Assembly (NCBI GenBank): GCA_043756665.1
Contig: JAYUQR010000056.1
Location: 1 to 35,999 of the forward strand
Length of the DNA stretch: 35,999 nt
Direction: 5' to 3'
Source: Candidatus Altimarinota bacterium
GTDB taxonomy: Bacteria > Patescibacteriota > Gracilibacteria > BD1-5 > UBA2023
Position 1 is the stretch's first letter, and every line of letters begins with the position of its first letter. The position numbers were made by a program, and so were the translations under genes. The notes under the pieces are model-generated. The model was not told the origin of the DNA and did no database searches. It saw only the letters and a program-made list of their open reading frames with translations. Positions 1 to 35,999 of the stretch are shown one piece after another.

Positions 1-6
1 TGGCAT

Positions 7-63
7 AGAAAAAGTGGGTTAAGTACTGATATTTTTAGCGAATTCAGTATACCCACTTTTTCT
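7..63. terminator. Long hairpin, probable bidirectional terminator for a gene left of the window
   Basis: agaaaaagtgggt (7-19) is the exact reverse complement of acccactttttct (51-63). Inner stem tactga/tcagta (24-29/44-49). A-run before, T-run after. Confidence 0.45.
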
Positions 64-139
64 ATTTTAGTGAAAGGATGTGTTTGGACTTAACAAGTAA
101 GTACTCCCGTACCATTTATTATTATTTCATTTTTACAAT

Positions 140-274
140 ATGACTACTCGTAATATCGACTCTACATCTCGCAATACAAAAGATGAATCCAAAAATAGTG
201 GAGGTTCACAGTCTGATGGAAGTTCAAAATCAGACGGAAAGGGAAAAGGTGGTAATTCATCTTCAAGTAAATAA
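140..274 (+). CDS. Small hydrophilic Gly/Ser/Lys-rich protein (44 aa), hypothetical
   Basis: ATG 140, TAA 272-274: MTTRNIDSTSRNTKDESKNSGGSQSDGSSKSDGKGKGGNSSSSK. Below the ORF-track size cut-off. Composition resembles the next ORF. No family recognised. Confidence 0.3.
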   Translation: MTTRNIDSTSRNTKDESKNSGGSQSDGSSKSDGKGKGGNSSSSK

Positions 275-322
275 TCTTTTCTTTCTCAGATTCGTTTTAT
301 ATGCAATTTAACTTTACATTTT

Positions 323-508
323 ATGTTTACTCAAGAAAATAATAAAAATTCTGGTGGAAGTCCAGGAGGTTCACAGTCTGCAGGAGCAGATCCAAAAGAT
401 AAGGAGAGTACTAATCCAAATCCAGATAGAAACACAGAAATCTGAAGTAACGGTCCTGATTCGAAATCTTGAAATAGCGGTTCTGATCCCAGTTCAAATA
501 ACCGATAG
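323..508 (+). CDS. Small hydrophilic Gly/Ser/Asn/Pro-rich protein (61 aa), hypothetical
   Basis: ATG 323, TAG 506-508, two in-frame UGA (443-445, 470-472) read as Gly. Followed by a terminator hairpin. Compositional paralog of 140-274. Confidence 0.35.
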
Positions 509-524
509 TCCATGAATTTCAAAA

Positions 525-553
525 ATATCTCTCCGACGGAGGGATATTTTTTT
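525..553 (+). terminator. Rho-independent terminator
   Basis: atatctctcc (525-534) / ggagggatat (538-547), one mismatch, 3-nt loop, then a T-run at 548-553. Confidence 0.6.
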
Positions 554-612
554 GTGAAGGGATTACATTTTATATATCAATCCAGACAGCGAGTACATCG
601 TAGATCAGGTAG

Positions 613-639
613 AAAAAATCTCTCAAACGAATGAGAGAT
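613..639 (-). terminator. Rho-independent terminator downstream of tRNA-Arg
   Basis: atctctca (618-625) / tgagagat (632-639). On the minus strand the hairpin is followed by a U-run (complement of the A-run at 613-617). Confidence 0.5.
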
Positions 640-1277: not shown

Positions 1278-1649
1278 TTATTTACTGTCGGTGAGAGATC
1301 TCTTATATCGGATAAAACCGGATAAAAGTTTCAATACAGTTTCTATCTCGCCTGTAATGGTTTCATGAAAAGCATCTCAGATATGTCCGAGCCGGTACGA
1401 TAGAATTACTTGTGTCTCGAGCTCCATAGCAGAACCTCTTGCAATAGTGAGAAATCGGATTAATTCAGCGTTTGACGATCTTCACATTCACTCGGCGATA
1501 TTGCTCGGGATCGAGAGAGACGCACGTTTCATTTGATCAGATAGGTTGTACGTGAGACTTTTCGGAAGAGTTTCACATACTTGAAAAAAAGTTTCAGCCA
1601 GCTTCATTGATCTTTCCCAGACTTCCAGATTCTTATAGTGAGTATTCAT
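1278..1649 (-). CDS. Four-helix-bundle protein (23S rRNA intervening-sequence / S23-like family)
   Basis: ATG 1649, TAA 1278-1280, 123 aa with three in-frame UGA: MNTHYKNLEVWERSMKLAE...SIPSNIAE(G)M(G)RSSNAELIRFLTIARGSAMELETQ. This matches the family signature NLxVWQ...IPxNIAEGxGR...FLxIArGSxxEl. Two UGA codons (1488-1490, 1482-1484) fall on the invariant Gly of AEGxGR. Confidence 0.85.
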
Positions 1650-1691: not shown

Positions 1692-1770
1692 TGGAGCGGG
1701 GAAACGGGTTCGAACCGTCACACCCAAGGGTTGAAGCCTTAGTACACTCACTCTTTTATGTTACCCCCGC
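1692..1770 (-). tRNA. tRNA-Gly with anticodon UCA (UGA decoder), CCA encoded
   Basis: Reverse complement GCGGGGG...TAAGG-CTTCAAC-CCTTG-GGTGT-GACGG-TTCGAAC-CCGTT-TCCCCGC-T-CCA. The loop is C-U-UCA-A-C; the anticodon is the complement of 1732-1734. It has a 5-nt variable loop and a 7-bp acceptor stem. G1:C72, C2:G71, G3:C70, U73 and C35 are bacterial glycine identity elements. The D-arm is atypical and I could not number it cleanly. Confidence 0.8.
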
Positions 1771-1890
1771 ATGAGATAATGGACAATGTACAATGAAAAA
1801 TGTACAATGTAGAGCTCGGGCAGTATATAAAAATGAGTCAAAAAGTCAAAAATCTCTTTGGATTTCGAGATTTTTTTCTATATTCGATAT

Positions 1891-3597
1891 ATGAATACTT
1901 CACCGAATACATCACTTCTCCATGAGATTCTCGAAGCACTCCTTACGGATCCAACTGTTATAACGAAAGAAGGTTTTCAAAAACTCAAGAATGCTATCCT
2001 CGGAAAGTATGGAGAAAAAGAAACGCCGACCTCGATAGAACTGATTGCTCATTATGCTGCATGAATCTCATCTGGCACATACCGAGAAGATTCTCGTGTG
2101 AGGAAAGTTCTCAGAAAAAGACCGATTCGTTCTCTTTCCGGAGTTTCAGTGATCTCCCTCCTCACCAAGTTTTGGGGATGTCCAGGTAAGTGTGTCTATT
2201 GTCCCACATATGACAATCTCCCAAAAAGCTATATCACGGATGAACCAGCAGTACAGCGAGCGGAGATGAATGCATTCGACCCATTTCGTCAGGTGCAGAA
2301 TCGACTCCAATCACTCTCGATGACGGGGAATGCGATCGCAAAATGTGATGTACGTGTTATCTGAGGAACATGGAGCGTTTATCCGAGAGAGTATCAGGAG
2401 GATTTTATTCGGAGTATTTATGATGCGCATACGAGTTTCAGGAGTTCGCAGTTCGCAGTTCGCAGTTCGCAGTCAGAACAAGGGAATCCATTTTTTGGTT
2501 CTGAAGCCCAAGATTCCAATATTCCAACATTTGAACAGTCACCCACTCTCGATAAGGCAAAAAAACGAAATGAAACTGCCTCGAGTCGAGTTATTGGTAT
2601 TGCCATCGAGACCCGTCCCGACTGGATTGATGAGGAAGAGTTGATATGCATACGCAACTATGGAGTCACTCGAGTGGAGATAGGGTATCAGACGACGGAT
2701 GATCGAATTAACGAGATCAATAAACGAGGTCATGGAAATCAGGAATCTATACGTGCAACCCGTCTCTTGAAAGATGCTGGTTTCAAGGTCGTAGCTCATA
2801 TGATGCCTGGACTCGTCTGATCGACGCCAGAAATCGATAGAGCATCGATGGCAGAAGTATTCGATAATCCTGACTATCGTCCTGATGAGATGAAGATCTA
2901 TCCTATGGTGGTGACGCCTCACTCAGAACTCGAGGATATCTGGCGTCGATGAGAATTCATCCCTTATGATGATGCCACGCTCATTCCCCTCATGTCTGAT
3001 CTCCAGGGTATGCTTCCTGAGTATCTGAGGCTCAATCGTATGTATCGAGATATCCCAGCGAGTCAGATCCTCGCAGGGTCAAAACTCGCGAACCTCAGAC
3101 AGATTACGGAGGTGAATATGCGTGCTCGCGGGATCGTCCGTCGAGATATCTCAGCCCGAGAGATCCGGGCTCGTGACAATGATCCTCATACGGCAATCCT
3201 CGATATCACTTTCTATGAGGCAAGTGGTGGTCATGAATACTTCCTCCAGTATATTGATCCGATTGATCGGACCATCTTTGGGTTGGCACGACTGCGTATT
3301 CCTTCACAGTATTTCACAGGAGAGACACATTTTATACCAGTATTGGATCGGGCTGCCATCATCCGTGAGCTCCATGTCTTCGGTGATCAGCTCTCTATCG
3401 GTGTTCCGTCAGATGGATCAGGACAACATATGGGATTCGGACGGCGGATGATGGCGGAAATGGAGCGGATCGTTCGGGAAAAGTATGAACAAATCGAGTG
3501 TATCGCAGTTATAGCAGGAGTCGGCGCAAAAGAATACTACAAAAAACTTGGATATACGGATGCAGATAGCTATATGATAAAAAAGTTGACAAATTAA
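1891..3597 (+). CDS. elp3: Elp3-family radical-SAM / GNAT enzyme (tRNA wobble-uridine cm5U-type modification)
   Basis: Frame 1 joins track ORFs 1858-2064, 2098-2364 and 2992-3597 through four UGA codons. Radical-SAM cluster motif GCPGKCVYCP; I(G)GTW..YPREYQ; IETRPDWI; EIGYQTTDD; C-terminal GNAT part QHMGFGRRMM...LGY. 568 aa. ATG 1891 preferred over the TTG at 1858. Confidence 0.9.
2443..2473 (+). repeat. Heptanucleotide tandem repeat (agttcgc) x4 plus a partial copy, inside elp3
   Basis: agttcgc at 2443, 2450, 2457 and 2464, then agt(c). Encodes SSQFAVRSSQS in a variable linker of Elp3. Confidence 0.9.
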
Positions 3598-3746: not shown

Positions 3747-4259
3747 ATGAAGCTCACTACGCGTGGTTTTACCCTCGTCGAACTCATGATCGTTATCGCG
3801 ATCATCGGTATCCTTGCTGCTGCCCTCTTCCCATCTATGACTGCCTATCTCAAGCGTTCTCGTGATGCTGCTCGTGTCTCAGGTACAAAGGATATATCCA
3901 CTGCTGCTGGTGCTTTCTTTACTGATAGAGAACGTTATCCTGATTCTACAAGTGTCGCTCCGATGGGTTGTGTTGGAAATTCTCTTACTACTGGATTTTC
4001 TACTGTCTATCTTCCAAAAGGTATTCCTGTTGACCCAACCTCAACCAATGATAATGGCTGTGGTAGTAATGGAAATTACGGTTATGGTTCAGGTAAAAAT
4101 GCAACTTCATTAGCACCACAGTTTTTCTTGACTACTAAGTTCGAAAACGTCAATGGTGGAAATACTGGTTCTATAGCTTGATACACTGGAGCTAATAGAA
4201 CCACTGGTCTCGGAACTCCTACTAAGGGAGCGGGTGCATTCTATGTTCTCTCGAATTAG
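3747..4259 (+). CDS. Type IV pilin / pseudopilin-like protein, paralog 1
   Basis: MKLTTRG|FTLVELMIVIAIIGILAA is a class III (prepilin) signal with G|F cleavage and Glu+5. One in-frame UGA (4179-4181) aligns with GGA (5017-5019) in paralog 2. TAG at 4257-4259. 170 aa. Shared C-terminus GTPTKGAGAFYVLSN. Confidence 0.85.
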
Positions 4260-4590: not shown

Positions 4591-5097
4591 ATGAAGCTCA
4601 CTACTCGTGGTTTTACCCTCGTCGAACTCATGATCGTTATCGCGATTATCGGTATCCTTGCCGCTGCACTCTTCCCATCTATGACAGCTTACCTCAAGCG
4701 TTCACGTGACGCTGCTCGTGTCTCAGGTACAAAAGATATTTCTACTGCTGCAGGCGCATTTTTTACTGATAGAGAAAGATATCCTGATTCTGAACCAACC
4801 ACTGGTTGTGCTGGAAGTTCTACTGCTACCGGGTTTTCTACAGTCTATCTCCCTAAGGGTATTCCTGTAGATAATACTTCAACCAATAATAATGGTTGTG
4901 GACCGAACGGAAGATATGGCTATGGTTCTGGTAATAATTCAACCGGCAATGTGCCACAATTTTTCCTTACTTCCCAGTTCGAAAACGTCAATGGTGGAAA
5001 TACTGGTTCTATATTCGGATATACTGGGCAAAGTGTAATAATCAATCTCGGAACTCCTACTAAGGGAGCAGGTGCTTTCTACGTTCTCTCGAATTAA
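4591..5097 (+). CDS. Type IV pilin / pseudopilin-like protein, paralog 2
   Basis: Same prepilin N-terminus. ATG 4591 chosen by homology to paralog 1 (the track start 4558 is upstream in frame). 168 aa. Confidence 0.85.
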   Translation: MKLTTRGFTLVELMIVIAIIGILAAALFPSMTAYLKRSRDAARVSGTKDISTAAGAFFTDRERYPDSEPTTGCAGSSTATGFSTVYLPKGIPVDNTSTNNNGCGPNGRYGYGSGNNSTGNVPQFFLTSQFENVNGGNTGSIFGYTGQSVIINLGTPTKGAGAFYVLSN

Positions 5098-5149
5098 TTT
5101 TTATAAAATCCCTCCATATGCTGGGGGGATTTTTCTTGTAAGTATATAT

Positions 5150-5653
5150 ATGAAATTTCCTATTCGTGGGTTTACCCTCGTCGAACTCATGATCGTTATC
5201 GCGATTATCGGCATCCTTGCCGCTGCCCTCTATCCAGCGATCACGAACTATATCGGACGATGAAGAGATGCACAGAGAGTAGCGCATCTCAAGGATATAG
5301 GAACGGCATTGACGAACTTTGCGAGTGATAATAAAGAAGACTATCCTGCCACTCTGGCTGATTGTGACCTCTCCGGTTCCCTTATGGTATTTCTGAATAA
5401 AGAACTCAAGGACCCTTTTCCAACGAGAAATCATGGATGTGGTCCGAATGGATTTTATGGATATGGTACAGGGGTGATCAATGTGACGCAATATTATGGT
5501 GTCAGTGCTGATCTCGAGACAGAGTATGGTGGATACTGGGCTGCATCGGGCTCGAATAATCCATTTACGGGAACACTTGATGCAGGGGATATCAATAACC
5601 TGAAGTTCAATCTCTGAAAAGGGAAAGGTCCACTGTATGTACTGTCTCAGTAG
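5150..5653 (+). CDS. Type IV pilin / pseudopilin-like protein, paralog 3 (divergent)
   Basis: MKFPIRG|FTLVELMIVIAIIGILAAALYP. Joins track ORFs 5072-5263 and 5309-5617 through UGA at 5261-5263 and 5615-5617. Ends ...GPLYVLSQ, TAG 5651-5653. 167 aa. Confidence 0.8.
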
Positions 5654-6354: not shown

Positions 6355-7101
6355 TTACTCTGTCAAAGTATTCAGGATGGTTTCATATACCTCTTTTCTC
6401 CGATCCTGATCATGAAATTTCAGCATCGTATCGGAGATGATAATGCCTTCTGGACTTCAGGATTTTTTCCATGAGCGAAGGGAATAGGGAAGGAGGAAAA
6501 ACCGGATCAACTGATTGAGATGGTGCATGAAGAAAAAAAGGATTTTCGATGAATTTTTTTTTCGAAGATTCTGGAATCAGAATTCCTGATTCTCTTCTTT
6601 TTGTTGAGGAGGGATACTGACCCAATTATTCATATCGAGAAAACTATCATAGGTATTATCTCTCTCATAGATAGGCTTCATAGAGGAGATCCAGTAGTAG
6701 AGATAGATATCATTATCGAGTGCAATCTCCTTCATATCGAGTGCCTCGGTCGTCACGAAAAATGAGAGACAGAAATTCCCACGAATATCCTCGCCGTGTC
6801 GCCAAACACCATGGAAGAAAAGCTGAGTAGTGATGCAAAAACGTACAAACCATATCATATCAGGCTCTGTCACGATAAAGAGATCGATATCAGAATCCTC
6901 ATGCGTCGCATACATCGAGAGAGAATTCACGACTGCGATCATCTCGATTCCAGGAATCCATGTGAGTTTCTGGATATATTTTCCTGCACGGTGAAAGAGC
7001 TCTATTTCTCGTTCATTGGGGAATTGTTTTACTCCCATGAGTATATCGAATTGCTCTTTATGGAGTTCTGAGAGATTGCGAATTTCAGTATCGTTTCACA
7101 T
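6355..7101 (-). CDS. Nucleotidyltransferase-fold protein, hypothetical
   Basis: Track ORF 6577-7038 extends through UGA (6577-6579, 6457-6459) to TAA at 6355-6357. The motif VVNSLSMYATHEDSDIDLFIV resembles the GS...D.D signature of pol-beta-type nucleotidyltransferases. The start is ATG 7101 (2 nt after the ruvA stop; second codon UGA) or ATG 7038. Confidence 0.55.
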
Positions 7102-7103
7102 AT

Positions 7104-7685
7104 TTATTTGAGTTTCTTGATAGCTTCACGGACTTTTTCTGCGAGTGGGAGATCAGAGCTCAGTGTCTCGATGATTTCCTCGACCCGAGTTTTATCGTAT
7201 CCCATCTGGACGAGTGAACTGATGACGAGGGTATTATTTGCATGCTTGGGTGTCGAAACCTGAGTGTGTTGGGATGTTTTAGAAAAGTTGATCGAGCCCT
7301 TAAGGTCGACGATGATTTTCTGAGCTGTTTTTTTCCCAATCCCAGGGACACTCGAGAGGAGGATGTCGTCCTCGAGGTGGATCGCTTTCATGAGATTCTC
7401 ATGACCGAGACCGAGGAGGGCGAGGGCTGTCTTCCCCCCGACACCATTGACTTTATTCAGTTCTCGAAAAAGTGATCGTTCATCAAAACTCGAGAATCCG
7501 AAAAGAGTTTCGCTCATTTCTGTCTGATGATGGTGAATCCAGAGCGACGATTCTCTCCCGATGAGGACACTTGAGAGGAGGATAGGAGATGCATATACAT
7601 CGAAACCGAGTCCTGTTCACTTCACTTCGATCGTGATCGTGATGCCATCGATCATGAGTAGCGTTCCGGTGATATGAGAGTACAT
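7104..7685 (-). CDS. ruvA: Holliday junction branch migration protein RuvA
   Basis: ATG 7685: MYSHITGTLLMIDGITITIEVK(G)TGLGFDVYAS...LFGF..ERSLFRELNKVNGVGGKTALALL...VPGIGKKTAQKIIVDLK... This shows the OB domain, two HhH motifs and the C-terminal domain III. One in-frame UGA. 193 aa. Confidence 0.9.
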
Positions 7686-7801
7686 AGTGAGATAGAGCTT
7701 AGAACTTAGGAATGAGAACTGAGGTTTTTGGTGGGGATGAAACGAGAGAAAATGAGTTCTCTTTTTCTTTGCATTATATCCAATCCCTATAGAATTGCGA
7801 T

Positions 7802-8806
7802 ATGAAAAAAAATATTGATATTCTCCTCTCCGTCATCGATAACTATGGTGATATGGGATTCGCATGTGAGCTCCTGATCGGACTCGAGAGAATATATCCA
7901 TGAGTATTTATATACCATATCTGGACGGATGATATCTGAGTCGTTACGAGTTTTTTCGAGAAAAATAGCGATTCACTCCCTGAGTATTATGTGAATATGT
8001 TAGAAAAATTTGGTGAGGATAATCAATCATCATTCTGTATTTCACTCTTTCATGGCTTTATTCCAGAGAGACGATTTTTCCAGAATCCTTCGATGATCCT
8101 CAGAATAGACTATCTCTCTCTCGATCGTGTATGGATGAGGAATCATGAAAAAGAGCATATCGGTTCCACAGAAGGCAGGAAAATTATCGAAATTATACCT
8201 TCGCCATTTCCACAGTGATGAGGAATATTCCCTTGTCCGATATGAAAATATACACGCCAGGATATCGCAGACATGTTTTCCTTGGATTGTTCGAAAGAAT
8301 GGATTTCGATTTTTTCCTATCCTCAGACACTGAGTGCAAGCATAGATTTTACGATTATTCCACACGATCGAGAAATACTCCTTCTCGGAGTTCCCACAGA
8401 AATACAGAAACAGATTACATATAAAAATATCCACTATCTTCCCTTTCTCCCACTGGATCTCTTTCATCATGTTCTTGCTCATAGTCTCTGGAGTATCATC
8501 CGTGGTGAACTCAGTTGGATGAATATGGTGGCTCTTGAGAAGCCATTTTTCTGGGATATGTACAAGTCTCTCGGTGGGTTTCCAGAAGAGCAGAGTCGAC
8601 AGTTTCTCGAACTATTTGAGGTATCATCGAATTATCGAGGCATCCATAATCATATCAATACGGGATTCCCGTGAAAATTCTCTCTTCACGAGTGTGAATA
8701 TTTGCTCATGTCCTGAAAATGAAATATGAGCCTGAAAAAAAAGAAACCGAAGGATCTCATCCATGAAGTAAAAAAATTTATTGACAGTTTCTATTTTTCC
8801 CTATAA
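7802..8806 (+). CDS. earP: EarP, EF-P arginine rhamnosyltransferase (DUF2331 family)
   Basis: MKKNIDILLSVIDNYGDMGFACELL matches the EarP N-terminal signature (DIFCxVVDNYGDIGVxWRLA). RIDYLSLDRVW matches LEYLSAEEW; ISIFSYP matches ISLFAYE. HYLPFLPLDLFHHVL...IIRGELSWMNMVALEKPFFWDMY matches LPF..QDDYDRLLW..D.NFVRGEDSF.RA.WA.RP..WHIY. Joins track ORFs 7991-8218 and 8273-8674 through about 8 UGA codons. TAA 8804-8806. Confidence 0.8.
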
Positions 8807-8850
8807 TCACAGGGCTTCGCCACAGTGCAGAGGCATAGTCTCAAAAACAT

Positions 8851-8927
8851 GCCAATGTAGCTCAGCTGGTTAGAGCGCGGGACTCATAAGCCCGAGGTCG
8901 GCGGTTCAAGCCCGCCCATTGGCACCA
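8851..8927 (+). tRNA. tRNA with anticodon CAU (elongator Met or lysidine-type Ile2), CCA encoded
   Basis: GCCAATG-TA-GCTC-AGCTGGTTA-GAGC-G-CGGGA-CTCATAA-GCCCG-AGGTC-GGCGG-TTCAAGC-CCGCC-CATTGGC-A-CCA. The G1:C72 pair excludes an initiator. Confidence 0.85.
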
Positions 8928-8933
8928 TCATAT

Positions 8934-9008
8934 CGCGGAGTAGAGCAGTGGTAGCTCGCAAGGCTCATAACCTTGAGGTCGTATGTTCGATTCATACCTC
9001 CGCAACCA
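8934..9008 (+). tRNA. Initiator tRNA-fMet (CAU), CCA encoded
   Basis: CGCGGAG...CAAGG-CTCATAA-CCTTG...CTCCGCA-A-CCA. The C1 x A72 mismatch at the top of the acceptor stem is the bacterial initiator hallmark. Only two G:C pairs close the anticodon loop instead of the usual three. Confidence 0.75.
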
Positions 9009-9133
9009 TCTATAGACCATCCTGAGTATTGATTCAAAGAAAATGTGAAAAAAATGTGAAAAACTTTTTGCATTTCTGAATAATCCTATTATACTCACTT
9101 CCACACGTTCTTTACTTCTTATTTTTTCTCATT

Positions 9134-9415
9134 ATGCGTATCGCATTACTTTCTATTGCCCTCATCACTCTCCTCTCTGCATGTACTGCACCGAGCAAGA
9201 CTCCAGTTGTACCAACTCCTGAGACAACTACAGTTACTGTCACAGATGTTCCTGCTCCAACTCCAATGCCTGTTCCTGAGCCTATGCCTGTACCAACTCC
9301 AACTCCTGTAACTGATGTAGCTCCAGCTCCAGCTCCAGCTCCAGCTCCAGCTCCAGCTCCAGCTCCAGCTCCAGCTCCAGCTCCAGCTCCAGCTCCAGCT
9401 CCAGCTGCGAAATAA
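9134..9415 (+). CDS. Lipoprotein with Pro/Thr-rich linker and (Ala-Pro)14 repeat
   Basis: MRIALLSIALITLLSAC is a signal peptide with lipobox LLSA|C. It is followed by TPVVPTPETTTVTVTDVPAPTPMPVPEP... and (AP)14. 93 aa. Terminator follows. Confidence 0.75.
   Translation: MRIALLSIALITLLSACTAPSKTPVVPTPETTTVTVTDVPAPTPMPVPEPMPVPTPTPVTDVAPAPAPAPAPAPAPAPAPAPAPAPAPAPAAK
9320..9406 (+). repeat. Hexanucleotide tandem repeat (gctcca) x14 plus a partial copy
   Basis: Perfect gctcca units from 9320 to 9403, then gct. In frame, encoding (Ala-Pro)14. Confidence 0.95.
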
Positions 9416-9430
9416 TTCTGAATATATGTA

Positions 9431-9456
9431 AAATCCACTGAAAAGTGGATTTTTTA
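9431..9456 (+). terminator. Rho-independent terminator
   Basis: aaatccact (9431-9439), loop gaaa, agtggattt (9444-9452), T-run to 9455. Confidence 0.75.
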
Positions 9457-9484
9457 TTTGTATTTTTTCGTGATTTCGGATAAT

Positions 9485-24383: not shown

Positions 24384-24854
24384 ATGAAATTTTCCACTTT
24401 TTGCAAATTTTTGGCTTTTTTCATAATATATGGTATGCTTCTCGTATCTTTTCTTATCCTTATGTTCCGTATATTCTCCATCATATTGTTGAGTTTGACT
24501 CCTCTGGTTATGCAGTCATATGCTGCATGTAATAATGACCTCACGAAGTCTGATTTTACTATCTGTACTGGACTCCTGAATCCACTTCCTGGAGCAGGTG
24601 AAGGTTCTGATGCCAAGTGAGTCGGGGCACTTCTCTATATCCTGGGGAAGATCGCAGATATGCTCCTCTTCGCTATCCCCCTGATCGCCGGGATTTCCCT
24701 CATCATCGCAGGGTACTACTATATCCTCTCGAGTGGAAATACTGAGAAGGCGACTCAGGCAAAGGTGATTATCAAGTGGAATATCGTCGCTATGCTCGTC
24801 GCATTTCTCTCCTATACCATGGTGAATCTCGTTCTCTATATTCTGAAACTCTAA
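24384..24854 (+). CDS. TrbC/VirB2-like T4SS-pilin-family small membrane protein, paralog 1
   Basis: Joins track ORFs 24384-24620 and 24660-24854 through UGA 24618-24620. N-terminal signal/TM, then ...LLFAIPLIAGISLIIAGYYYILSSGNTEKATQAKVIIKWNIVAMLVAFLSYTMVNLVL. This is a two-TM hairpin with a conserved S-G-x-x-E-K-x-x-x-A-K loop. The start could also be an internal Met, since ATG 24384 is only 5 nt from the divergent secG ATG. Confidence 0.65.
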
Positions 24855-24857
24855 TCA

Positions 24858-25205
24858 ATGTTTATGAAAAGATTCTTCTTCGCATCCTTTATCATATTGT
24901 TCTATATCGAGCAGTGTGTCGCCCTATACGATCTCAAGCTTCCCGAAGGGATAACTTCGAATCAGATCGTAGAAGTGAAGAATCCGATGACATTTCTCTG
25001 AAATCTCATCGCTTATGCGATCGGTATTGCAGGAGTCCTCGCTGTGATCGGTGTGACTTGGTGAGGCATACAGATGATCCTCTCATCGGGTGAAGATGAG
25101 AAGATGAAGAAGGCACGATATATCCTGATCTACTCACTGATCGGTGTCCTCGTCGCAGGTCTCGCATATGGAGTCGTCGATGTTGTATCGAGATTTAGAT
25201 TCTAA
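24858..25205 (+). CDS. TrbC/VirB2-like T4SS-pilin-family small membrane protein, paralog 2
   Basis: MFMKRFFFASFIILFYIEQCVA (signal)...FL(G)NLIAYAIGIAGVLAVIGVTW(G)GIQMILSSGEDEKMKKARYILIYSLIGVLVAGLAYGVVDVV. 115 aa. TAA 25203-25205. Missing from the track as a single ORF because of two UGA codons. Confidence 0.75.
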
Positions 25206-25213
25206 TACTTTCT

Positions 25214-25543
25214 ATGAAATACCTCCTTTCCCTTATCGTACTCATCCCAATACATCTCTTTGCTGTTCCGAGTACTGAGATCTCACCAGAGGGTGGGCTC
25301 GGTCTTGCTGGATGGACCCTGAGTCGATTCCTCTCGTATGCTGAGGAATTTCTCCTCAAGGCAGTCCTTCCGATTACAGTCGTCGGAGTAGCACTCTATG
25401 TCGGATATCATCTCGTCACGGCTGAGTGAGATGAAGAAAAGATGAAAAAAGCATTCAAATCCCTTACCTACTCCTCTATCGGACTCATTGCTGTTGCTTG
25501 TGCGTATGCATTTGTCCGAGTGATCGCGAGCCTCTCTCTCTAA
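25214..25543 (+). CDS. TrbC/VirB2-like T4SS-pilin-family small membrane protein, paralog 3
   Basis: MKYLLSLIVLIPIHLFAV (signal)...AVLPITVVGVALYVGYHLVTAE(G)DEEKMKKAFKSLTYSSIGLIAVACAYAFV. UGA 25427-25429 aligns with GGT 25088-25090 of paralog 2. 109 aa. Confidence 0.75.
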
Positions 25544-25553
25544 TTTTTTTTCT

Positions 25554-25973
25554 ATGAAGTGACTCTTCTCCTGTATTCTTCTGTGCATATCCTCAATTTT
25601 CTTTGTATCGAATATTTTTGCAGCTCCTATTGGTTGTAATATAGAGAAAATCAATGCTGGGACATTCTTGAAAAACTGTGGAGCTGGTACTGCTTGAATC
25701 CAGCCAGGTGGTGGTGATGGAAAATCAGGAGTAAAAGAACGAGTCAAGACAATAGCAGAAACGGCTATAGCGTTCGGAGCACTCCTCGCCGTTGCCATGC
25801 TCGTCTGGTCAGGAATACAGTATACGATCACGTATGGTGAGGATGAGAAGATCAAACATGCGAAAACGACAGCTGTCTATGCTCTGATCGGACTGATTCT
25901 GATGATGGCATCATTTTGACTCGTGGATGTCTTTCTGAGCTTTATATTCACTGCCTGAAGTTGAGGTAAATAA
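25554..25973 (+). CDS. TrbC/VirB2-like T4SS-pilin-family small membrane protein, paralog 4
   Basis: MK(G)LFSCILLCISSIFFVSNIFA (signal)...AIAFGALLAVAMLVWSGIQYTITYGEDEKIKHAKTTAVYALIGLILMMASF. 139 aa, five UGA, TAA 25971-25973. The 190-aa minus-strand ORF 25283-25855 is its antisense shadow. Confidence 0.7.
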
Positions 25974-26873: not shown

Positions 26874-28118
26874 ATGTGACTTATTTTTGGTGATACTGAT
26901 GATATTCTGTTCTGATGAACTCCTCTCCCTCGCGAAGATGTTCGAGAGAAATTTCCCCCATCTCCGACTCGAGTACACTCACCCTTGCCTGTTCGGACTC
27001 CGTCCGTAGTTTCATCTCCTGTGTCACAACCGCCCCTCCAGAGAAGAGCTTCTCCTGTTCAACAAGCTCCAGCTCCTATTCCACGAGAGATCGAGGGCTG
27101 ACTCCGCAAACTGGTAGAATCGATGAAATCTACATTTTTTCCTCAGGGGAACGACGACTCTCTGAGGGTATCGATTCTCTCAGCTTCCACGATACGAGAT
27201 CCATTTATTATCCTTCGATCTTCTGAGGGGACACTCTTGTTCGGTACAGGATTCTCTCAGGTCTCTGCTTGAGGAAAAAGCTATCCATCATTCCCAGATA
27301 TGAGACTTCCCTATAGTGAAAAAGACCGATTGACAGGGTGGGTTCTTCTCGAGACTGGATTCGCCATAGCCCCATTTCAGATGATTCTCGAATTACTCGG
27401 ATTCCCTCATGTATATGCAACAAGAGAAGTTATTGCGTATATTCGTGATACCATAAAAGATAGTGTTTTTCTCGATCGATGTCGATTCTTTGAGCTTTTT
27501 TCTCCAGGTATCTCCGATCGGAAAATAGGGGAGTACCTCCTTGAAGATATATCTTGAGGTATCATGCTGTCTGCGTGAACGAATGGATTTTTCCTCCCAA
27601 AATCCGGGATAGTCCAATCGACTCAATCGGGCATGACACTCATACAAACCGATTCTGGATATAGCTTTGTATGAGCTGATACCCTTGCATTTGTTTCTGG
27701 AGAGATCATCGATCTCCTGAAGACAAAGGCATCGAAACATTCTCTCAAATTTACTTTTGATACATTTTATATCGATAAAAATTCTATTGGCGTCGCTGCA
27801 GGATACACTCTCTGAGATCGTGAAATCCTTGCTGAAAATGGTGTACTTACCTTTGTCATCGAAGAAGATGTCCGTGCACGAGCGATTATCTGACATATTT
27901 TTATCGATTCTCGTGGATTCGTCCACTCGCATGAGATGATGACAGTTCACAAGGAGATCCTGAAATGAATCCGCTATACCTATGAACAGACTATACTTGC
28001 GAATAATCGCATCGAACGATCAGAACTTGTTCATATGCTCCGTCGTGAACTCACGAAATATTGCTATCTCGTAACCGGGAGAACCCCGGTCGTGATGCCA
28101 GTGATTATAGAAAGGTAG
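26874..28118 (+). CDS. RNase J-like paralog lacking the metallo-beta-lactamase His motif and the beta-CASP domain
   Basis: Frame 0, open with UGA as sense, contains track ORF 27300-27557. It aligns to the canonical rnj downstream: DSLRVSILSA / ETLRVIPFGG; TLLFGTGF / MIIVDMGIQF; WVLLETGFAIAP (27342-27374) replaces ITHGHIDHIG; PHVYATREVIAYIR / TPLYATPMAYELIK. The C-terminal domain is canonical: GVLTFVIEED...IFIDSRGFVHSHE...LRRELTKYCYLVTGRTPVVMPVIIER. TAG 28116-28118. The start is ATG 26874 (Pro-rich extension) or ATG 27123. Minus-strand ORF 27393-27950 is an antisense shadow. Confidence 0.6.
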
Positions 28119-28254
28119 ATATAGTGCATAGGCATAGTGCATAGAATGGAACCTTTGTTTTTGTCATTTCGAACGAAGTGAAACACCTGCCGGAAAGACG
28201 AATTGACACAGAATGCAATATCAGAAATTTTCAAATTAATAACCAAATACATTT

Positions 28255-30120
28255 ATGCGCAACAAACGCTTTCAAAGTAATACCGGAAATCCTCCGAGTA
28301 AATCAGGATCCCCTCGAAGTTTTTTCGACTGAGGAAAAAAAATTCAAAGCAATCTCCGTCCTGGGGATGCATTTCTCTATGAGGATTCATTTAAGCCAAA
28401 ACGATCCTACCCATTTCTCACACCGACTCAGGCACTCAAGAAATACCTCTGAGAAAAAGAAGAGCGTACCAAGCCACTGGGTAAAGAAACCCTCCGTGTC
28501 ATACCATTCGGTGGTATGGAACAAGTCGGACTCAACTGTATGGGATTCGAGTATGAGGATGAGATGATCATCGTCGATATGGGGATCCAGTTTCCCGATC
28601 AGTACCAGTTCGGTATCAACTCCTCCATCCCCGACCTCTCCTACTGTCGTGGAAAGAAAGTGGTATGAGCCTGTATCACCCACGGACATATCGATCATAT
28701 CGGATGAGTCTATTACCTCATGGAACAGCTCGGGCGGAGTACTCCACTCTATGCCACTCCTATGGCATATGAACTCATCAAGCTCAAGCAAGCAGATATG
28801 GGTGCTACTCTCCCGAATATCCGCGAATATACTCGCTATGAGCCGATCCAGATCGGGAAATATTTCCAGATCACACCGTTTGTGGTCGATCACTCGATCC
28901 CTGACTCAGTCGGACTCCTCATCGAGACTCCGGTTGGGAGATTTGTCCATACGGGTGACTGGAAATTCGATAAGTCTCCACTTCCGAACCGCCCATCCAC
29001 GAACTATGAGTACCTCGAGACCCTCGGAAAACGTGGGGTTCGTGCCCTCTTTTCTGACTCAACCAATGCACATCTCCTCGGTTCCTCTATCTCTGAATCT
29101 GCCGTCGTCCACTCGATGGAGGATATCTTCGAGAAGGCATCAGGACGCGTGATCACGGCAACTTTCTCCTCGATCATCGATCGTGTCATGCTCATCATCT
29201 CGACCGCTGAGAAATACAACCGAAAAATCGTCCTCCTCGGTCGATCGATGAATAACTATATCGATATCGCGATCAAGCTCGGCTATGTCCGACCAAAACC
29301 TGGAACGATCATCACCATGGAAGATGCAGCGAGACTCCCTGATAACCAAGTCACTATCTGTTGTACTGGAGCACAAGGAGAACGTTATGCAGCGCTGATG
29401 CGTATCGTCACGGGTGAGTCTCGAGACACCACACTGAAGGCCGATGATACGATCATATTCTCATCGTCAGTGATCCCTGGGAATGAGCGCGCAGTGCAGT
29501 GACTCTTCGACCTTATCACTCAGCAGTGACCGAAGATCCACCACTACAAGGAGTCAGAGATCCATGCTGGATGACATGCGAAGGAAGAGGATACCAAAAA
29601 AATGATCACCCTCATCCAGCCTGAGTACTATATTCCTATCTATGGATATACCCATATGCTCCGTGGAAATACACGAAATGCCTATGATCTCGGATATGCG
29701 AAAGATAAGGTTATCGTGATGAAAAATGGAAAAATCCTCGAGTTTACGAAAGATGAAGTGCGAGAAACGGATGAATATGTTTCGAAGAAGCTCATGACTG
29801 TCGATGGACGGATGGTTGGGTATACGGCAGAACGAGAACTCCATGATCGATTCCAGATCTCATCTCAGTGAGTCCTCGTTATCGGTATCGTGAAGAAAAA
29901 TGCCGGTTTCGCCATCAAGTATCAGACGGTCGGACTCCCGAGTGTTGATAAGGTACCGACACTTGAAAAATCTCTCGAAATGAGTATAAAGGATATACTC
30001 CGTGATCTCTCGAAGTTCAAGGATGCAGAATCATTCGTCACTCACGTCGAACGCAAAGCGTGCGATATCTGTCTCTATGAGATCGGGAAAGAACCGAAGG
30101 TAGTCGTGATAGTACAGTAA
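28255..30120 (+). CDS. rnj: Ribonuclease J
   Basis: Frame 1 joins track ORFs 28720-29502, 29602-29871 and 29890-30120 plus the N-terminal part. LRVIPFGGMEQVGLNCMGFEY..MIIVDMGIQFP; ITHGHIDHIG(G); HSIPDS; HTGDWKFD; LFSDSTNA; TFSSIIDR; GAQGE; SVIPGNE; IHAG(G)HA; PIYGYTHM. 621 aa including a basic ~80-aa N-terminal extension. Confidence 0.9.
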
Positions 30121-30780: not shown

Positions 30781-30893
30781 TTGTTTCAATGTACAATTTA
30801 CAAATAATAAATTACAATTTCCGGATTGTTCACTATACATTGTTCACTGTTCATTGTTTTTGGGGGTATAGCTCAGTGGTTAGAGCAGTCGGC

Positions 30894-31256
30894 TTAAGGA
30901 TTTTTTTCTAAATCAAGCTCAGGATAATGTTCTTCTGCATGACAATTATGACAAAGGAGTATGCAGGATCTTAACTCATTTTCAATACGTTCGAATGTTC
31001 TATTCGAAAGGGATCGAACATCGAGTTTGAATTCTTTTTTCTGAGGGTCAGTGTGATGAAATGATAATGCACCAAGATTCTTCTTGTATCTGCATCTCAT
31101 GCATCAACCTCAGAAACGCTCAATAAGTTCACGTTTTCTTTTGAATCCTCGAGCTTTCTGAGATGGGTAACTCTGATGTTTCTTGTTTTTGCAGATGATC
31201 GAACAGAATAATTTCTGTTTTCCTGAAAGGATATTTCAGCATATGATACATTTCAT
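30894..31256 (-). CDS. HNH homing endonuclease encoded antisense within the intron
   Basis: ATG 31256: MKCIIC(G)NILSGKQKLFCSIICKNKK (zinc ribbon)...(G)G(G)CMRCRYKK...LSFHHTDPQKKEFKLD...ENELRSCILLCHNCHAEEH (HNH motif). 120 aa, three in-frame UGA. The TAA stop (complement of 30894-30896) abuts the 5' splice site. Confidence 0.8.
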
Positions 31257-31487
31257 AACTGAAAATATAGTAAGATATGAAAAATTTGCAAGGGCGGTTA
31301 TGAGAGTAATCTCATAATGTTTATCTGTCAAATTCGGGGAAACCTTCATCTCAATCGAGATATGGCAATCCCGAGCCAAGCCTGTAATAAGGAAGGTGTA
31401 GAGACTAGATGGCAGACATCCTGAAAAGGATGAAGGGATAGTCCAGACTCCAAACTCGAAAGGGGTAGTGAAAACTATAGCAGTACG
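30895..31487 (+). mobile_element. Group I intron (IC3-like, Azoarcus/cyanobacterial tRNA-intron type) in the anticodon loop, 593 nt
   Basis: The 5' exon ends in U and the intron ends in G (31487). The core at 31320-31487 contains gtcaaattcggggaaacc, tatggcaatcccgagccaagcc and gaaggtgtagagactagatggca. As I recall them, these match the conserved J3/4-P4, P6 and J6/7-P7 segments of the Azoarcus tRNA-Ile intron. P2-like hairpin ttatgaga-gtaa-tctcataa and P8-like hairpin atcct-gaaa-aggat. I could not identify P1/IGS. Confidence 0.75.
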
Positions 31488-33141
31488 CATAACCGATTGG
31501 TCCCTGGTTCAAGTCCAGGTACCCCCACCATAATGTAAATCATTCAGTAAGAGCATCAGTTTTAATGTAACTGATGCTCTTTTCTGTTAGTTCCAACGTA
31601 AAAATATACCCATGTTGTAATTTATTGAACTCTATAAACGGCAAAAACCAATCATGAAGATTGGCTTGCAGTTTCTGATCCATTAATATCCAGTTCCAAC
31701 CAAGAGAACGAAAAATCATTTTCTTGGTTTCTAGATCTCAATCTCTGAATCTTTCGGAAGCATATTTTGAGAAATTGATAGTATCTATGATGAGTTCAGT
31801 CCAGTCTATATTTTCTTTTTCTATCTCAGTTTTTCGTATTTGTAGTAATTCTATTTCTTTTTCTAGCTCTAGCCTCATTCTATCATATTCTTTATAGTTA
31901 CTCTCGAACTCTCAAGCGAGCCTCATGTGTAAGAGTCTCGTTTTTTTCTTTTCAGCAGATTCAAGAGTATTTGTAATGTTTGTTTTTATACTTTCCCTGC
32001 CAGTAGATTCCTCACTATATTTTCGCTTGAGTACTTCTTTTGACCAGTTGAAGAACTCTGGAATGATTTCAATCTCACTTAGAATTTCTTCTATTTGTTT
32101 TTCAACTCATTCGTTTGAGACAACTTTCCTTTGATCGCAATGAAATTCAGTTGTATTTTTTTTGTGTGTGCAGTGGTAATATGTGTATTCTTTCTCTTTT
32201 CCAGTAGAACGTATGTTCTTGTACTTCTTGACTGCTGTAACCATACAACCACAGCATCAGCAACGAATATTCCCAGTATAGGGGAATGTTAATATAGAAG
32301 GCCTTTCTCTATATACCTTATTTGGAGATCCACTTGTATGAGAGATGAGCTTTTGAGCTTTCTCGAATTCTTCCCATGTAATCATAGGCTCGTGAGATCA
32401 CTTGATTGTATTTTTATTATACTTCATGTATCCTGTATAGAAAGGATTCCTGAACATTGCATATAGTGTAGATATTGCGAGTTCTCTACGAGCCTTATAT
32501 TTTACATTTACTGTGGAGTATCACCACTCCGTATTGGCAGTATGTGCTATCTGAGAAGGAGCATAACATCATGTGAGTAGCATATCCCACATCTTTCTTA
32601 CCAACTGGAACTTTTCTGGATCAGAAGCAATAGTTCTTGTAATAGGGTCATTAATATAGCCTTGAGGCGCCTTTGCAGGAAAGTGACCTTTCTCAATCTT
32701 ACTTTTGAGTCATCTTCTTACATTTTTAGAGAGATCAAGAATATACTGATTTGCCATACCTGTTTCAACGCTGAAGATGAGTCATGAATCTTCGGGATGA
32801 TACACTCTATCGCTTGTTATAATTCGCTTTATTTTGTGCCTCTGAAGCATATATTGAACACTTCCTGCATCTACTGGGTTACGAGTAAGTCTATCAAGCT
32901 TCCAACAGAGAATACCATCAATGCTTCATTCTTCTATTTCAGCACACATTTCATAGAATGCTTTCCTTACTCACGGAGCCTTTGCTGATTTTTCTTCAGT
33001 GTAGATTTTCACAATTTCTATGCCATCTTCGACTGCTTTCCTTTTCCAGTATGTAATCTGGTCATCAATTGACTGAACTTGTCTATCTTCTCTTTCAGAA
33101 GACTTCCGTGCATAAAGCACAAATCGGGTAGCTTTTTCCAT
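31405..33141 (-). CDS. Large serine recombinase (resolvase domain, recombinase domain, zinc ribbon, coiled coil)
   Basis: ATG 33141: MEKATRFVLYARKSSEREDRQVQSIDDQ (catalytic Ser region)...IDGILCWKLDRLTRN...GHFPAKAPQGY...AMFRNPFYTGYM...GNIRC(G)CCGCMV...YYHCTHKK...FHC, then a coiled coil. I verified every codon. There are 11 internal UGA codons. A 12th UGA at 31540-31542 is the only stop-like codon before the tRNA. The first in-frame TAA/TAG is TAG 31405-31407, so the code-25 ORF is 578 aa, or 533 aa if it ends at that UGA. Confidence 0.8.
31549..31584 (+). terminator. Rho-independent terminator of the split tRNA
   Basis: aagagcatcagtt (31549-31561) / aactgatgctctt (31569-31581) form a 13-bp perfect stem, followed by tttt. 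Confidence 0.65.
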
Positions 33142-33201
33142 AATAAAATTGTTAAGTAATGTAAAGTAATATATAAGGTACTATTGATAAGTACATAATA
33201 T

Positions 33202-35340
33202 TTATGTAAGTCAAACATCAGCTATCGGGCTTATATGCATATTTCTTCAAATATTTTCTATAGTGATGAGTCCAGCATTAGCGAGAGTTGGCTCTATTTC
33301 TTGTCTCCAAAGAGCATCCGACATTGGTCTACCATAAACTTCACTATGTTTTTGTATAATTTTCTTGCGGGTGACTCATATTGCATCCTCTGGTCAGAAA
33401 TAATCTTCCCTTTGCTTGTTGTACTCTATGTAGGCAGGAACAAGTATCTCCATATACAATCGCATTGTATATGGAGATACATTGAACTTTTGACCAGGAG
33501 AGATCTTCTGCCATAGGCTCCATGCTTCCTCAATATCGGTATCTTCGGCATATAAAGTTGCTCATGTTCTTTTTCGATGAGGGAGATTAAGGAGAGCGAA
33601 AGCTCTAATGAATCACATGAATCGGTCTATGTCTCGTTGGTCCCGAGGTATACAGCCCTGTTTTCATTTTCACTCCAGAAAGAATCGATCTACTTTCTCA
33701 GGATCGAGAAAGTCTATATCGTCTATATTGGCATCTTTTATATGCTGAATTCTTTCTTTGAGAATATTTCTTTCAGGATCATTTATAATTGATTCTTTTA
33801 GCTTTTTATCTGCACCACTAAGTCTAATTTTATGCTGGACAGTATCATAGATCTTCTCGCTATGAGTTTCGGGAGAGATAAGTAGAAAACGAGTTGCTTC
33901 TTGTTCATCGAGTTGTGTCGATGCTGTACAGAATACAGCTACAGGATATCCATAAATAATAATGTTTTTTGTTTGGTTTCATCATTGACCACTTTTATCT
34001 GTTATTTTACAGGTCAGAATTGGTTTATCATGTGAGAGAAGAGGCCTTAATTTTCAAAGAAGTTCTGTTCTAGGCTGATCAATAAATATGATAATTTTTC
34101 TATCGAGATGTATGTGTTTCTCATTTTTCTCTTTATCATACTCTCCATTTTCATGGAAGAACGCACTTTGAGATACATAAAGTAATTCCATAAGACTATC
34201 TTTTGGGAAAAGTTGAGCTATCTGTAAGGGTATGTATGATTTACCAGATGAAGACGGAGCATTTAGCATTATATTTATCTGTGAGTCCCTCGTAAATGCT
34301 GTAAGCATAGCCAGAAATACGATTAATTTATTCGTGTCATCATGTTTAATAGTAAGTGAAAGTATTCTTATAATGTCTACACTCGTCATCGGAGCAAATT
34401 TTGATGAATCTGTACCCCGTATGAGCTCACTATATAAAGTCATCATTTCATCGCTAGTTCCACCATTTTTTATAAAGTCAGACACATCTTTCCCCATTTC
34501 TAGTGGAAGTGAGATTCTATATATCTCTTTTTCAGGAAAACGAGCAATAAGTCGGTCAATAAGTCTAGTGGCTCATTTATTTCAGGCATCATCATTATCA
34601 AAACAGATATATATTTTAGAGAGCGATGCAAGACTCTCTAACCATTCTTCTTTGAATGTTCCTACTCATCCCGTAGAGCTTATTCACATAAGTCCCTCCC
34701 GAGAAAGTATCATCTGATCGAATTCTCACTCGCAGATCACTATATAATCATCATTATTTTGCATGTTTTCTCATCCATAGAGCATCGTTTCGTTTCAAGA
34801 TGGGTAAAATATATACTTATTTCCTTCCGATCAGTAGGGGTCACGTCTGAGCTTAAAAAATTGAAATACTCATTTTATATCTCGAATTGGTATTGTTATC
34901 CAGTTTGATCCATAGAAAGAGCCATATCCGATTTGCCTTTCTTTTATGAGTTCTTCCGTAATACCTCGTTCATTCAAGTATTCACGGATGTTTGGTGGTA
35001 ATGACTTCTGATACTTTGAGATATCCTTTTCTGTTAGAGTTATCTTCTTTTTTTGGACTTCTGGATTTCTTGGACTCTTCGGATTTGTGTATCATTCAAG
35101 TGGATATTCTCAAGGATCATCTCAAAAATGTTTGAGAAGCGTGATCCAGTTTCATTGTGCGAGACATTTTTTGCACTGGTAGAGTCCTGTAGACTCTTCG
35201 ATATAAAGATGAGCTTCCTTGCCTCGACTGTCTTTGTCGCATTCATTGAATACGCAATGTGCTGCAATTTCTTTGCCAGTCTTATAGTGAAAGATTCATT
35301 TTTTATCCAAATAAGTGGGGATCGTTGTAGTAGGTAACAT
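33202..35340 (-). CDS. Primase-helicase: CHC2 zinc finger, TOPRIM primase and P-loop NTPase fusion
   Basis: ATG 35340, TAA 33202-33204, 712 aa, every codon checked, 25 in-frame UGA. Zinc finger AAHCVFNECDKDS...LYQCKKCLAQ(G)NW. TOPRIM IVICE(G)EFDQMIL...YICFDNDDA(G)NK(G)A, with UGA on the invariant Gly of EGxxD and DxDxAG. Walker A MLNAPSSSGKSY and Walker B-like KIIIFIDQP. Contains track ORF 34054-34497. Track ORFs 35040-35267 and 35053-35337 are out-of-frame or antisense shadows. Confidence 0.85.
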
Positions 35341-35357
35341 AAAAGTAGTAATTAAAT

Positions 35358-35498
35358 TTATAAAATGGAACGAGAGACAGTTTCCATCAGTAGAATGAGT
35401 TTAACGGCTTGTTCATGAGCATCTTCAGTACTGATTTCGACTTGAAATAAGCTCTTGTAAATGCTTTGATATTCGCGGATGTCTTGCTCGGTTAACAT
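35358..35498 (-). CDS. Small protein (46 aa), hypothetical, upstream of the primase-helicase
   Basis: ATG 35498: MLTEQDIREYQSIYKSLFQVEISTEDAHEQAVKLILLMETVSRSIL. TAA is the complement of 35358-35360. Same strand as the primase gene and 17 nt upstream of it. Confidence 0.35.
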   Translation of the reverse strand: MLTEQDIREYQSIYKSLFQVEISTEDAHEQAVKLILLMETVSRSIL

Positions 35499-35514
35499 AC
35501 TAGTAGAAACAAAA

Positions 35515-35551
35515 ATAGGTACCAACAACTTAGCTAAGTGTTGATACCTAT
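35515..35551. repeat. 37-nt imperfect palindrome (operator / recombination-site candidate)
   Basis: The arm ataggtaccaac (35515-35526) pairs with gttgatacctat (35540-35551) with one mismatch. Between them is the perfect 12-nt palindrome acttagctaagt (35528-35539). The element lies 17 nt upstream of the small ORF start. Confidence 0.6.
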
Positions 35552-35625
35552 TATATTCTGTCTTGGTTTTTACGACACCTCCCGAATGACTCCTTTTTGT
35601 CGCTAAATTATCGCTATTGATGTTT

Positions 35626-35647
35626 TATATATCCAATATATATCCAA
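35626..35647 (+). repeat. Exact 11-nt tandem direct repeat tatatatccaa x2 (iteron-like)
   Basis: Copies at 35626-35636 and 35637-35647, followed by ccaa-ctcatc-ttgg and an A/T tract. Confidence 0.6.
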
Positions 35648-35999
35648 CTCATCTTGGTTTGATATATTTTTTTATTTCTGGGTTTAGTTTATTCCGTATT
35701 TTCTGACAATATCTTCAAGAAGTCTCATTAGACCTTCATTTTGATATATATGTTTTGATATTCTCATAGTCGCATATCACTCATCTATTTTCATATAAAA
35801 TCTTCAAGAGCCTATACTGAGTGGTTGCTATTGATAAAGCATCCTCAATCACAATTCAATCAAAATAAATTTTTCATCAAAGGGTATCAAAAAAGAATCA
35901 TGATGGTATTCGAGGTGTTGTCCGAATAGAATCTTCTTTTTTCTCATTTCGGTTGAGTTTATTTTTCTCTTCAAGAAGACTTCAAATAGATGATTCGGT

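Follow-up and report, generated by a model that had tools for sequence, protein, structure and literature searches.

The window analysed here, a 35,999-nt stretch of DNA (41% G+C) from a Candidatus Altimarinota bacterium, carries a curated set of 30 protein genes, comprising 10,002 codons and covering 84% of its length, together with 7 tRNA genes (Table 1). Our subject is the codon TGA (UGA in the message), which an initial annotation of the window had read as a sense codon for glycine throughout. We fixed the gene models by a codon-usage score combined with Pfam and NCBIfam matches. Four of the longest open reading frames (ORFs) obtained with TGA as sense (6412-7695, 15387-16382, 24617-25855 and 28105-30045) lie on the wrong strand by these measures and were replaced by the GalU, YraN, T4SS-pilin and RNase J models. 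The curated genes contain 192 in-frame TGA codons, and 27 of the 30 genes are broken if TGA is a stop, as expected from the earlier description of genes cut at TGA and contiguous on read-through, which had put the number of in-frame TGA at more than 100. We obtained the same counts as it gives for single genes: 41 TGA codons for the 1401-codon ORF (9470-13675), 25 for the primase-helicase and 14 for the solute-binding protein. Its remark that every gene model ends in TAA or TAG is also true, but true by construction, and carries no evidential weight.

Under NCBI translation table 11, the longest ORF in the window measures 269 codons, and all those with 100 codons or more add up to 10,830 amino acids. 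When TGA is treated as sense, leaving TAA and TAG as the only stops, the total becomes 35,432 amino acids and the longest ORF reaches 1419 codons. With TAG or TAA as the additional sense codon in place of TGA, the totals are just 15,289 and 16,591 amino acids, and 100 dinucleotide-preserving shuffles of the window give a TGA-sense total of 12,184 ± 1,036 amino acids with no ORF longer than 397 codons. By these controls, the ORF gain is peculiar to TGA and far exceeds what chance would give. For the first 27 gene models we also tallied codon usage: TGA supplies 180 of 690 glycine-type codons (26%), second only to GGA, at a frequency of 19 per 1000 codons; the longest TGA-free piece averages half of the gene length; and the terminators are TAA in 20 genes and TAG in 7.

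Family matches run continuously across the TGA codons. The profiles for QueA, Aminotran_5, Elp3 and 23S_rRNA_IVP are covered practically from end to end (Table 1), and RNase J, GalU, YraN, SecG, NifU, the AAA_14 ATPase, the family-5 solute-binding protein, the type IV pilins, the four T4SS pilins, the serine recombinase and the Toprim primase-helicase are matched across TGA as well. The comparison of tables 25 and 11 that had been proposed as a check thus leaves 3 of 30 genes, the TGA-free ones, intact under table 11, and read-through gives end-to-end family matches. UAA and UAG still act as stops, since the genes end where their orthologues do (as with RNase J, 621/621), and neither TAA nor TAG occurs in frame in any family-matched gene or anywhere in the 1401-codon gene. 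These data bear on the idea that the window holds pseudogenes, sequencing errors or a leaky UGA stop in a standard-code organism, which would explain why nearly every gene looks interrupted under table 11. We found no frameshifts, frame and family match run through every TGA, in-frame TAA and TAG are completely missing, and independent assemblies have TGA conserved at matching codons (384 aligned cells in the comparison below). At 1.9% of codons, in 27 of 30 genes, its density is moreover too high for inefficient read-through, and we consider this explanation highly improbable.

For a comparison with relatives, we collected related DNA from 41 species-representative genome loci and from metagenome contigs syntenic with the right or left half of the window. 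Public proteins of these relatives have been translated with table 4 or table 25, giving a mixture of Trp and Gly at TGA, and are therefore uninformative; we compared codons at the DNA level instead. Opposite the TGA codons of the window (52 loci, 2089 aligned cells), Gly occurs in 923 cells (44%) and TGA itself in 384 (18%), followed by Ser (194) and Ala (130), with Trp in 1 and Cys in 2. If identical codons are excluded (44 loci), 55% of TGA partners are Gly, compared with 55-62% for the window's GGN codons, and Ala and Ser are the runners-up for TGA as they are for GGA, GGT, GGC and GGG. A count per site, chosen to lessen the effect of relatedness, covers the 55 TGA sites for which 10 or more relatives are informative, and Gly has the plurality at 33 of them. 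Where a single amino acid reaches at least 80%, it is Gly at 22 of 25 TGA sites, Ser at 2, Ala at 1 and Trp at none. Of 26 TGG sites, 24 are Trp.

The closest comparisons and the individual genes show the same pattern. All TGA positions that have changed in the two nearest relatives are GGN there (7/7 in each, 14 in total). The 1401-codon gene shares 52% identity with a full-length orthologue in relative L177 (3001-7095), in which the 37 aligned TGA codons are matched by 21 GGN, 7 TGA, 9 other codons and no TGG. Gly is also in the plurality at most TGA sites of the solute-binding protein (41 relatives aligned), and site 72 of T4SS pilin 3 has 28 Gly and 10 TGA among relatives; for RNase J, 45 relatives were aligned. 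UGA is thus a frequent sense codon equivalent to GGN, and the tabulation of residues opposite UGA, which had been suggested as a test of the glycine reading, returns Gly rather than Trp, Cys or a random scatter. The remaining codons in the alignment screen correspond to their standard amino acids; ATG and TGG are exceptions solely for lack of a synonymous codon. In particular, CGA and CGG pair with Arg (53% and 51% of non-identical aligned codons) and Trp was found at 0 of 61 CGR sites, so that the reassignment of CGG/CGA to Trp known in a sister clade is not seen here and was ruled out for the window.

The same alignments address the possibility that UGA encodes tryptophan, read by a tRNA-Trp(UCA) as under table 4 in Mycoplasma and several insect endosymbionts. 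Public catalogues do translate relatives in this way: RNase J entries P0001 (L002, NCBI GCA_031380795.1) and P0004 (L001, JGI 3300056825) are table-4 translations with W at all 7 TGA positions and every other residue as encoded in the DNA. This reflects gene-calling software and not biology. At the codon level, Trp stands opposite TGA in the single cell mentioned above, and a TGG of the window is never opposite TGA in the aligned relatives; since TGA to TGG is a single transition, its absence among the partners is informative. Together with the homologues and the tRNA described next, this makes a tryptophan code very hard to credit.

Homologues that use the standard code also place glycine at the TGA sites. 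We aligned 24 TGA sites to solved structures of QueA (three structures compared), SufS, RNase J, GalU and Elp3. At 18 of these sites one or more homologues have Gly, at 10 all homologues shown have it, and Trp and Cys are absent from the whole set. Among the sites with Gly throughout are those in the FSFGD motif of QueA, the KPGAGGE loop of GalU, the Elp3 GGT motif and, in RNase J, the SGH and ITHGH-flanking positions. In the RNase J structures, G is found at TGA sites 138, 440 and 539 in 4 of 4; the GalU structures have G at 4 of 7 TGA sites, and the archaeal Elp3 structures at all 3 aligned sites, GGT included. For the primase-helicase, four phage primases (Erwinia, Salmonella, Weizmannia and Tunturiibacter) carry G at TOPRIM EGxxD, at DxDxAG and at one further site, and W is absent from all 9 primase-aligned TGA sites.

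The initial annotation had located TGA on conserved glycines of well-known motifs, and with one shift of a nucleotide these assignments hold (x or X marks TGA). TGA 16480-16482 (FSFxD) falls on an invariant G of the QueA structures, TGA 2362-2364 (VIxGTW) on a G of the archaeal Elp3 structures, and the two TOPRIM codons at 34726-34728 (CExEFD) and 34582-34584 (DNDDAx) on G in the four phage primases. TGA 1488-1490 and 1482-1484 (NIAExMxR) are in frame within the full-length 23S_rRNA_IVP match. The Walker A consensus is GxxxxGK[ST], and TGA 13952-13954 (xPRGIGKTT) provides its first G in the AAA_14 ATPase, for which no related solved structure was found. Among paralogues, pilin A reads GSIAXYTG where pilin B reads GSIFGYTG, with the in-frame TGA 4179-4181 of the former opposite GGA 5017-5019 of the latter. 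The T4SS-pilin pair is likewise correct as to TGA 25427-25429, in frame in pilin 3, but the glycine codon GGT of pilin 2 (SSGEDEK) lies at 25089-25091 and not at 25088-25090; the same TGA is also opposite GGA 24735-24737 and GGT 25836-25838 in the other T4SS-pilin paralogues.

On the decoder, the initial annotation was silent. We found a tRNA gene with anticodon UCA inside the window, the predicted UGA decoder, whose product carries the set of glycine identity elements: CCA is encoded, the acceptor stem has 7 bp with G1:C72, C2:G71 and G3:C70, and the discriminator is U73. Shulgina & Eddy required the same features to call tRNA-Gly(UCA) in Absconditabacteria/Gracilibacteria, whereas Trp identity would need G73 (PMC8629427); the U73 and G1:C72 of this tRNA are a further point against a tryptophan code. 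The same study raises the point that UGG, too, could be read through wobble by an anticodon with U34 (PMC8629427). ARAGORN labels the gene 'tRNA-SeC', which would turn UGA into selenocysteine, but this label derives from the anticodon alone. The predicted molecule folds into a normal class I cloverleaf: its acceptor stem measures 7 bp and its T stem 5 bp, the variable loop is short (4-5 nt), and it is without the extended acceptor/T arm and the long variable arm of a selenocysteine tRNA. In addition, 192 sites are far too many for selenocysteine, and they align with Gly, with Cys in 2 of 2089 cells. We give selenocysteine practically no chance, less even than tryptophan or a leaky stop.

We scanned metagenomes for this tRNA with a 15-nt anticodon-arm pattern. 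Most hits were chance matches, and tRNA(UCA) was present in 12 of 120 loci; one of these 12, an 87-nt tRNA with a long variable arm (L122), was set aside. The scan added 11 further 79-nt copies, and the 9 distinct sequences, including that of the window, share one cloverleaf with 6 compensatory pairs, in which pairs 1:72, 2:71 and 3:70 and U73 are invariant. We also tried to link the tRNA to recoding by dividing the TGA-sense ORF sum of each locus by its table-11 sum, and dropped this approach because GC content confounds the ratio.

The RNase J search places the window in a lineage in which this code is known. It returned loci from 41 GTDB species at 70-95% identity, most of them titled Candidatus Gracilibacteria and the remainder Candidatus Peribacteria or Patescibacteria group, and gene order is common to the window and related contigs of up to 290 kb. 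NCBI now names the group Candidatus Altimarinota. In summary, the window is almost certainly chromosomal DNA of Candidatus Gracilibacteria (BD1-5/GN02, now 'Altimarinota') written in table 25, in which UGA encodes Gly and only UAA and UAG terminate. The relatives' GGN codons, the glycines of standard-code homologues, the glycine set of tRNA(UCA) and the nearest genomes all support the initial assignment of table 25. Mechanistically, glycyl-tRNA synthetase (GlyRS) would charge tRNA(UCA) with glycine, the charged tRNA would pair with UGA on the ribosome, and release factor 2 (RF2) would have been lost, as we infer from the lineage, leaving no competitor for UGA. Bacterial UGA reassignments go along with RF2 loss (PMC4695839), and no release factor gene lies within the 36-kb window. 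New UGA codons would arise mostly from GGA by a single-base change, and also from other codons, and would be neutral at glycine sites. In another BD1-5 bacterium, proteomics demonstrated UGA as Gly with 97 Gly-specific versus 3 Trp-specific peptides (Hanke et al. 2014, PMC4032931).

Several points weigh against this conclusion. Conservation is lower at TGA sites than at GGN sites, Gly having the plurality at 60% of the former and 82% of the latter, and the cell counts, coming from related genomes, lack phylogenetic independence. A few TGA sites (GalU 107 and 154, SufS 251, RNase J 416) correspond to residues that are uniformly Glu, His or Arg in standard-code homologues, although Gracilibacteria relatives have Gly at the SufS and RNase J sites. 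The peptide support comes from another BD1-5 bacterium, and the absence of RF2 and charging by GlyRS are drawn from the lineage.

The tRNA(UCA) gene lies 88 nt from a gene for Elp3, in divergent orientation. Elp3, which modifies tRNA at the wobble uridine 34, is uncommon among bacteria. In this lineage it is common, with at least 120 clusters at 54% identity or more among the matches listed. The pairing is kept in 5 of 5 relatives with 69-86% Elp3 identity (L165-L169) and on a short metagenome contig (L124). It loosens farther out: the tRNA is 1.8 kb away in L171 (61%), and tRNA(UCA) was not found within ±5 kb of Elp3 in L170 (64%) and L172 (55%). We therefore do not take the adjacency as proof of a functional link and keep it only as a lead; as the pairing is lost in more distant relatives, it may be plain synteny. 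A literature search pairing Elp3 with these lineages gave no mention of Elp3 among its top matches. It is conceivable, though in our judgement rather unlikely, that the coexistence of UGA as Gly and UGG as Trp depends on an Elp3-made xm5U34-type modification of tRNA(UCA).

Table 1 Features of the 35,999-nt window; TGA counts are in-frame codons, and L numbers denote relatives.
Feature	Position (strand)	TGA	Match and remarks
23S_rRNA_IVP four-helix-bundle protein	1278-1649 (-)	3	Pfam PF05635, 1.4e-31, 1-106/106; two TGA in NIAE-G-x-G-R
tRNA, anticodon UCA	1692-1770 (-)		79 nt; ARAGORN, Rfam tRNA model 42.3 bits; predicted UGA decoder
Elp3 radical SAM/GNAT enzyme	1858-3597 (+)	4	NCBIfam TIGR01211, 477.7 bits (cutoff 350), 8-522/522
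Three type IV pilin paralogues	3747-4259, 4591-5097, 5072-5653 (+)		Pfam N_methyl
EarP-like protein	7802-8806 (+)	8	Pfam PF10093, 1.7e-11; orthologue in L177
1401-codon gene	9470-13675 (+)	41	no Pfam family
AAA_14 ATPase with winged-helix domain	13838-15037 (+)	6	Pfam PF13173, 1.6e-26
YraN/UPF0102	15041-15406 (-)	2	Pfam
GalU, UTP-glucose-1-phosphate uridylyltransferase	15411-16355 (-)	7	Pfam
QueA	16438-17616 (-)	7	Pfam PF02547, 2.7e-95, 2-322/322
TPR lipoprotein	17725-19131 (+)	9	Pfam TPR; syntenic in L001 and L169
SufS-type cysteine desulfurase	19178-20392 (+)	3	Pfam PF00266 (Aminotran_5), 1.7e-106, 1-371/371
Family-5 solute-binding protein	21940-24078 (-)	14	Pfam PF00496
Four T4SS-pilin paralogues	24384-25973 (+)		Pfam PF18895
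RNase J C-domain protein	26874-28118 (+)	11	Pfam
RNase J	28255-30120 (+)	8	Pfam
tRNA(CAU) gene, split after U33	30862-31530 (+)		593-nt group I intron at 30895-31487; Rfam RF00028, 78.9 bits
HNH endonuclease ORF, 120 codons	30894-31256 (-)	3	antisense in the intron; weak Pfam HNH match
Integrated element	31405-35999 (-)		reaches window end; adjoins tRNA-Ser(GCU) and tRNA(CAU)
Serine recombinase	31405-33141 (-)	12	Pfam Resolvase/Recombinase
Primase-helicase	33202-35310 (-)	25	Pfam Toprim_2
Winged-helix protein, partial	35625-35999 (-)	9	

The left half of the window includes a segment of variable gene order. About 10 kb between the pilins and QueA (~6355-16355) are missing from relative L169 (JGI contig Ga0558119_00497); this segment holds a 248-aa protein, the EarP-like protein, two tRNA(CAU) genes, the 1401-codon gene, the AAA_14 ATPase, YraN and GalU. 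It is partly present in L177, which indicates that gene order varies in this region. The two tRNA(CAU) genes stand in tandem, 6 nt apart, at 8851-8927 and 8934-9008 (+). Besides the missing Pfam match, the 1401-codon gene had no match in a word-indexed protein search, and an exhaustive search with its TGA-free N-terminal piece returned just 14 distant representatives. Its relatives include two full-length proteins of 1336-1364 aa, one of them syntenic between EarP and YraN.

At the right end, an integrated element adjoins a tRNA gene interrupted by a group I intron. ARAGORN, with introns allowed, called this gene tRNA-Leu(UAA) at 30862-31530. We rejected the call as a mislabel: the joined exons form a tRNA(CAU) and are identical to the intact gene of three relatives. 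With the tandem pair, the 36 kb thus contain three CAU tRNAs, presumably initiator, elongator Met and Ile2. The intron is missing in about 25 relatives, measures 250-261 nt in L005 and L009, and 599 nt in L012. The long form carries the HNH endonuclease ORF, which shows the motifs FHHxD and CHNCH, has two of its three TGA codons in ERFxGxC, and ends with a stop codon that adjoins the 5' splice site.

In the element itself, TGA makes up as much as 7% of codons. A similar pair of recombinase and primase-helicase occurs in another Gracilibacteria metagenome-assembled genome (MAG; L010) at 62-64% identity, and L001 has different genes at this position. The element and the intron-borne homing endonuclease are written in the code of their host. 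One recombinase codon, TGA 31540-31542, lies just outside the 3' end of the tRNA and is conserved in two other genomes (L010 and L012). Past this codon, another 44 codons of the recombinase ORF run antisense to the tRNA exon and intron and end at a TAG. The extension could be a real C-terminal tail or the relic of a stop from a standard-code ancestor.

The reassignment of UGA to Gly is already known, as the initial annotation had also remarked, and for table 25 the window is a textbook example from a lineage known to use it. It changes nothing in the knowledge of the genetic code, and its value is mainly practical. Table 11 would label about nine in ten genes here as pseudogenes or fragments, table 4, a frequent fallback of gene callers, turns every UGA into Trp, and table 25 restores a normal, dense gene map. 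Catalogue entries made with table 4 bring false Trp residues into alignments of this lineage. With recoded genes and their predicted decoding tRNA side by side, the window also makes a compact teaching case. The code common to the host, the integrated element and the homing endonuclease fits the idea that an altered code limits gene exchange with standard-code organisms.

Among known systems, the code of Gracilibacteria / BD1-5 / GN02 is reportedly covered by Rinke et al. in 2013, and that of Absconditabacteria / SR1 by Campbell et al. in 2013. The Absconditabacteria share the UGA to Gly change and the same type of tRNA with the window. Absconditabacteria and some Gracilibacteria are further predicted to read CGA and/or CGG as Trp (Shulgina & Eddy 2021, PMC8629427); in contrast to this extended code, CGA and CGG of the window stay Arg. 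In the table 4 organisms (Mycoplasmatales, Entomoplasmatales and several endosymbionts), a tRNA whose anticodon is UCA has likewise captured UGA and RF2 can be dispensed with, but the amino acid is Trp where the window has Gly. As UGG stays Trp here, tRNA(UCA) must avoid wobble-reading UGG, a problem absent in table 4 organisms. Alternatively coded phages and mobile elements of Gracilibacteria (Liu et al. 2023, PMC10746230) use in-frame TGA as their host does, as do the element and the endonuclease of the window with 49 in four genes; the window differs in having no structural phage genes and in holding an integrated element beside tRNA genes instead of a free phage genome. The nearest system is the Gracilibacteria code itself (table 25; Hanke et al. 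2014, PMC4032931), with UGA as Gly, UAA and UAG as sole stops, a tRNA(UCA) with G1:C72, C2:G71, G3:C70 and U73, and Gracilibacteria MAGs as the nearest genomes. Recoded clades span G+C contents of 0.21-0.53 (PMC8629427), a range that includes the window, and we see no essential difference from this code, of which the window, with 26% of glycine codons as UGA, makes heavy use.

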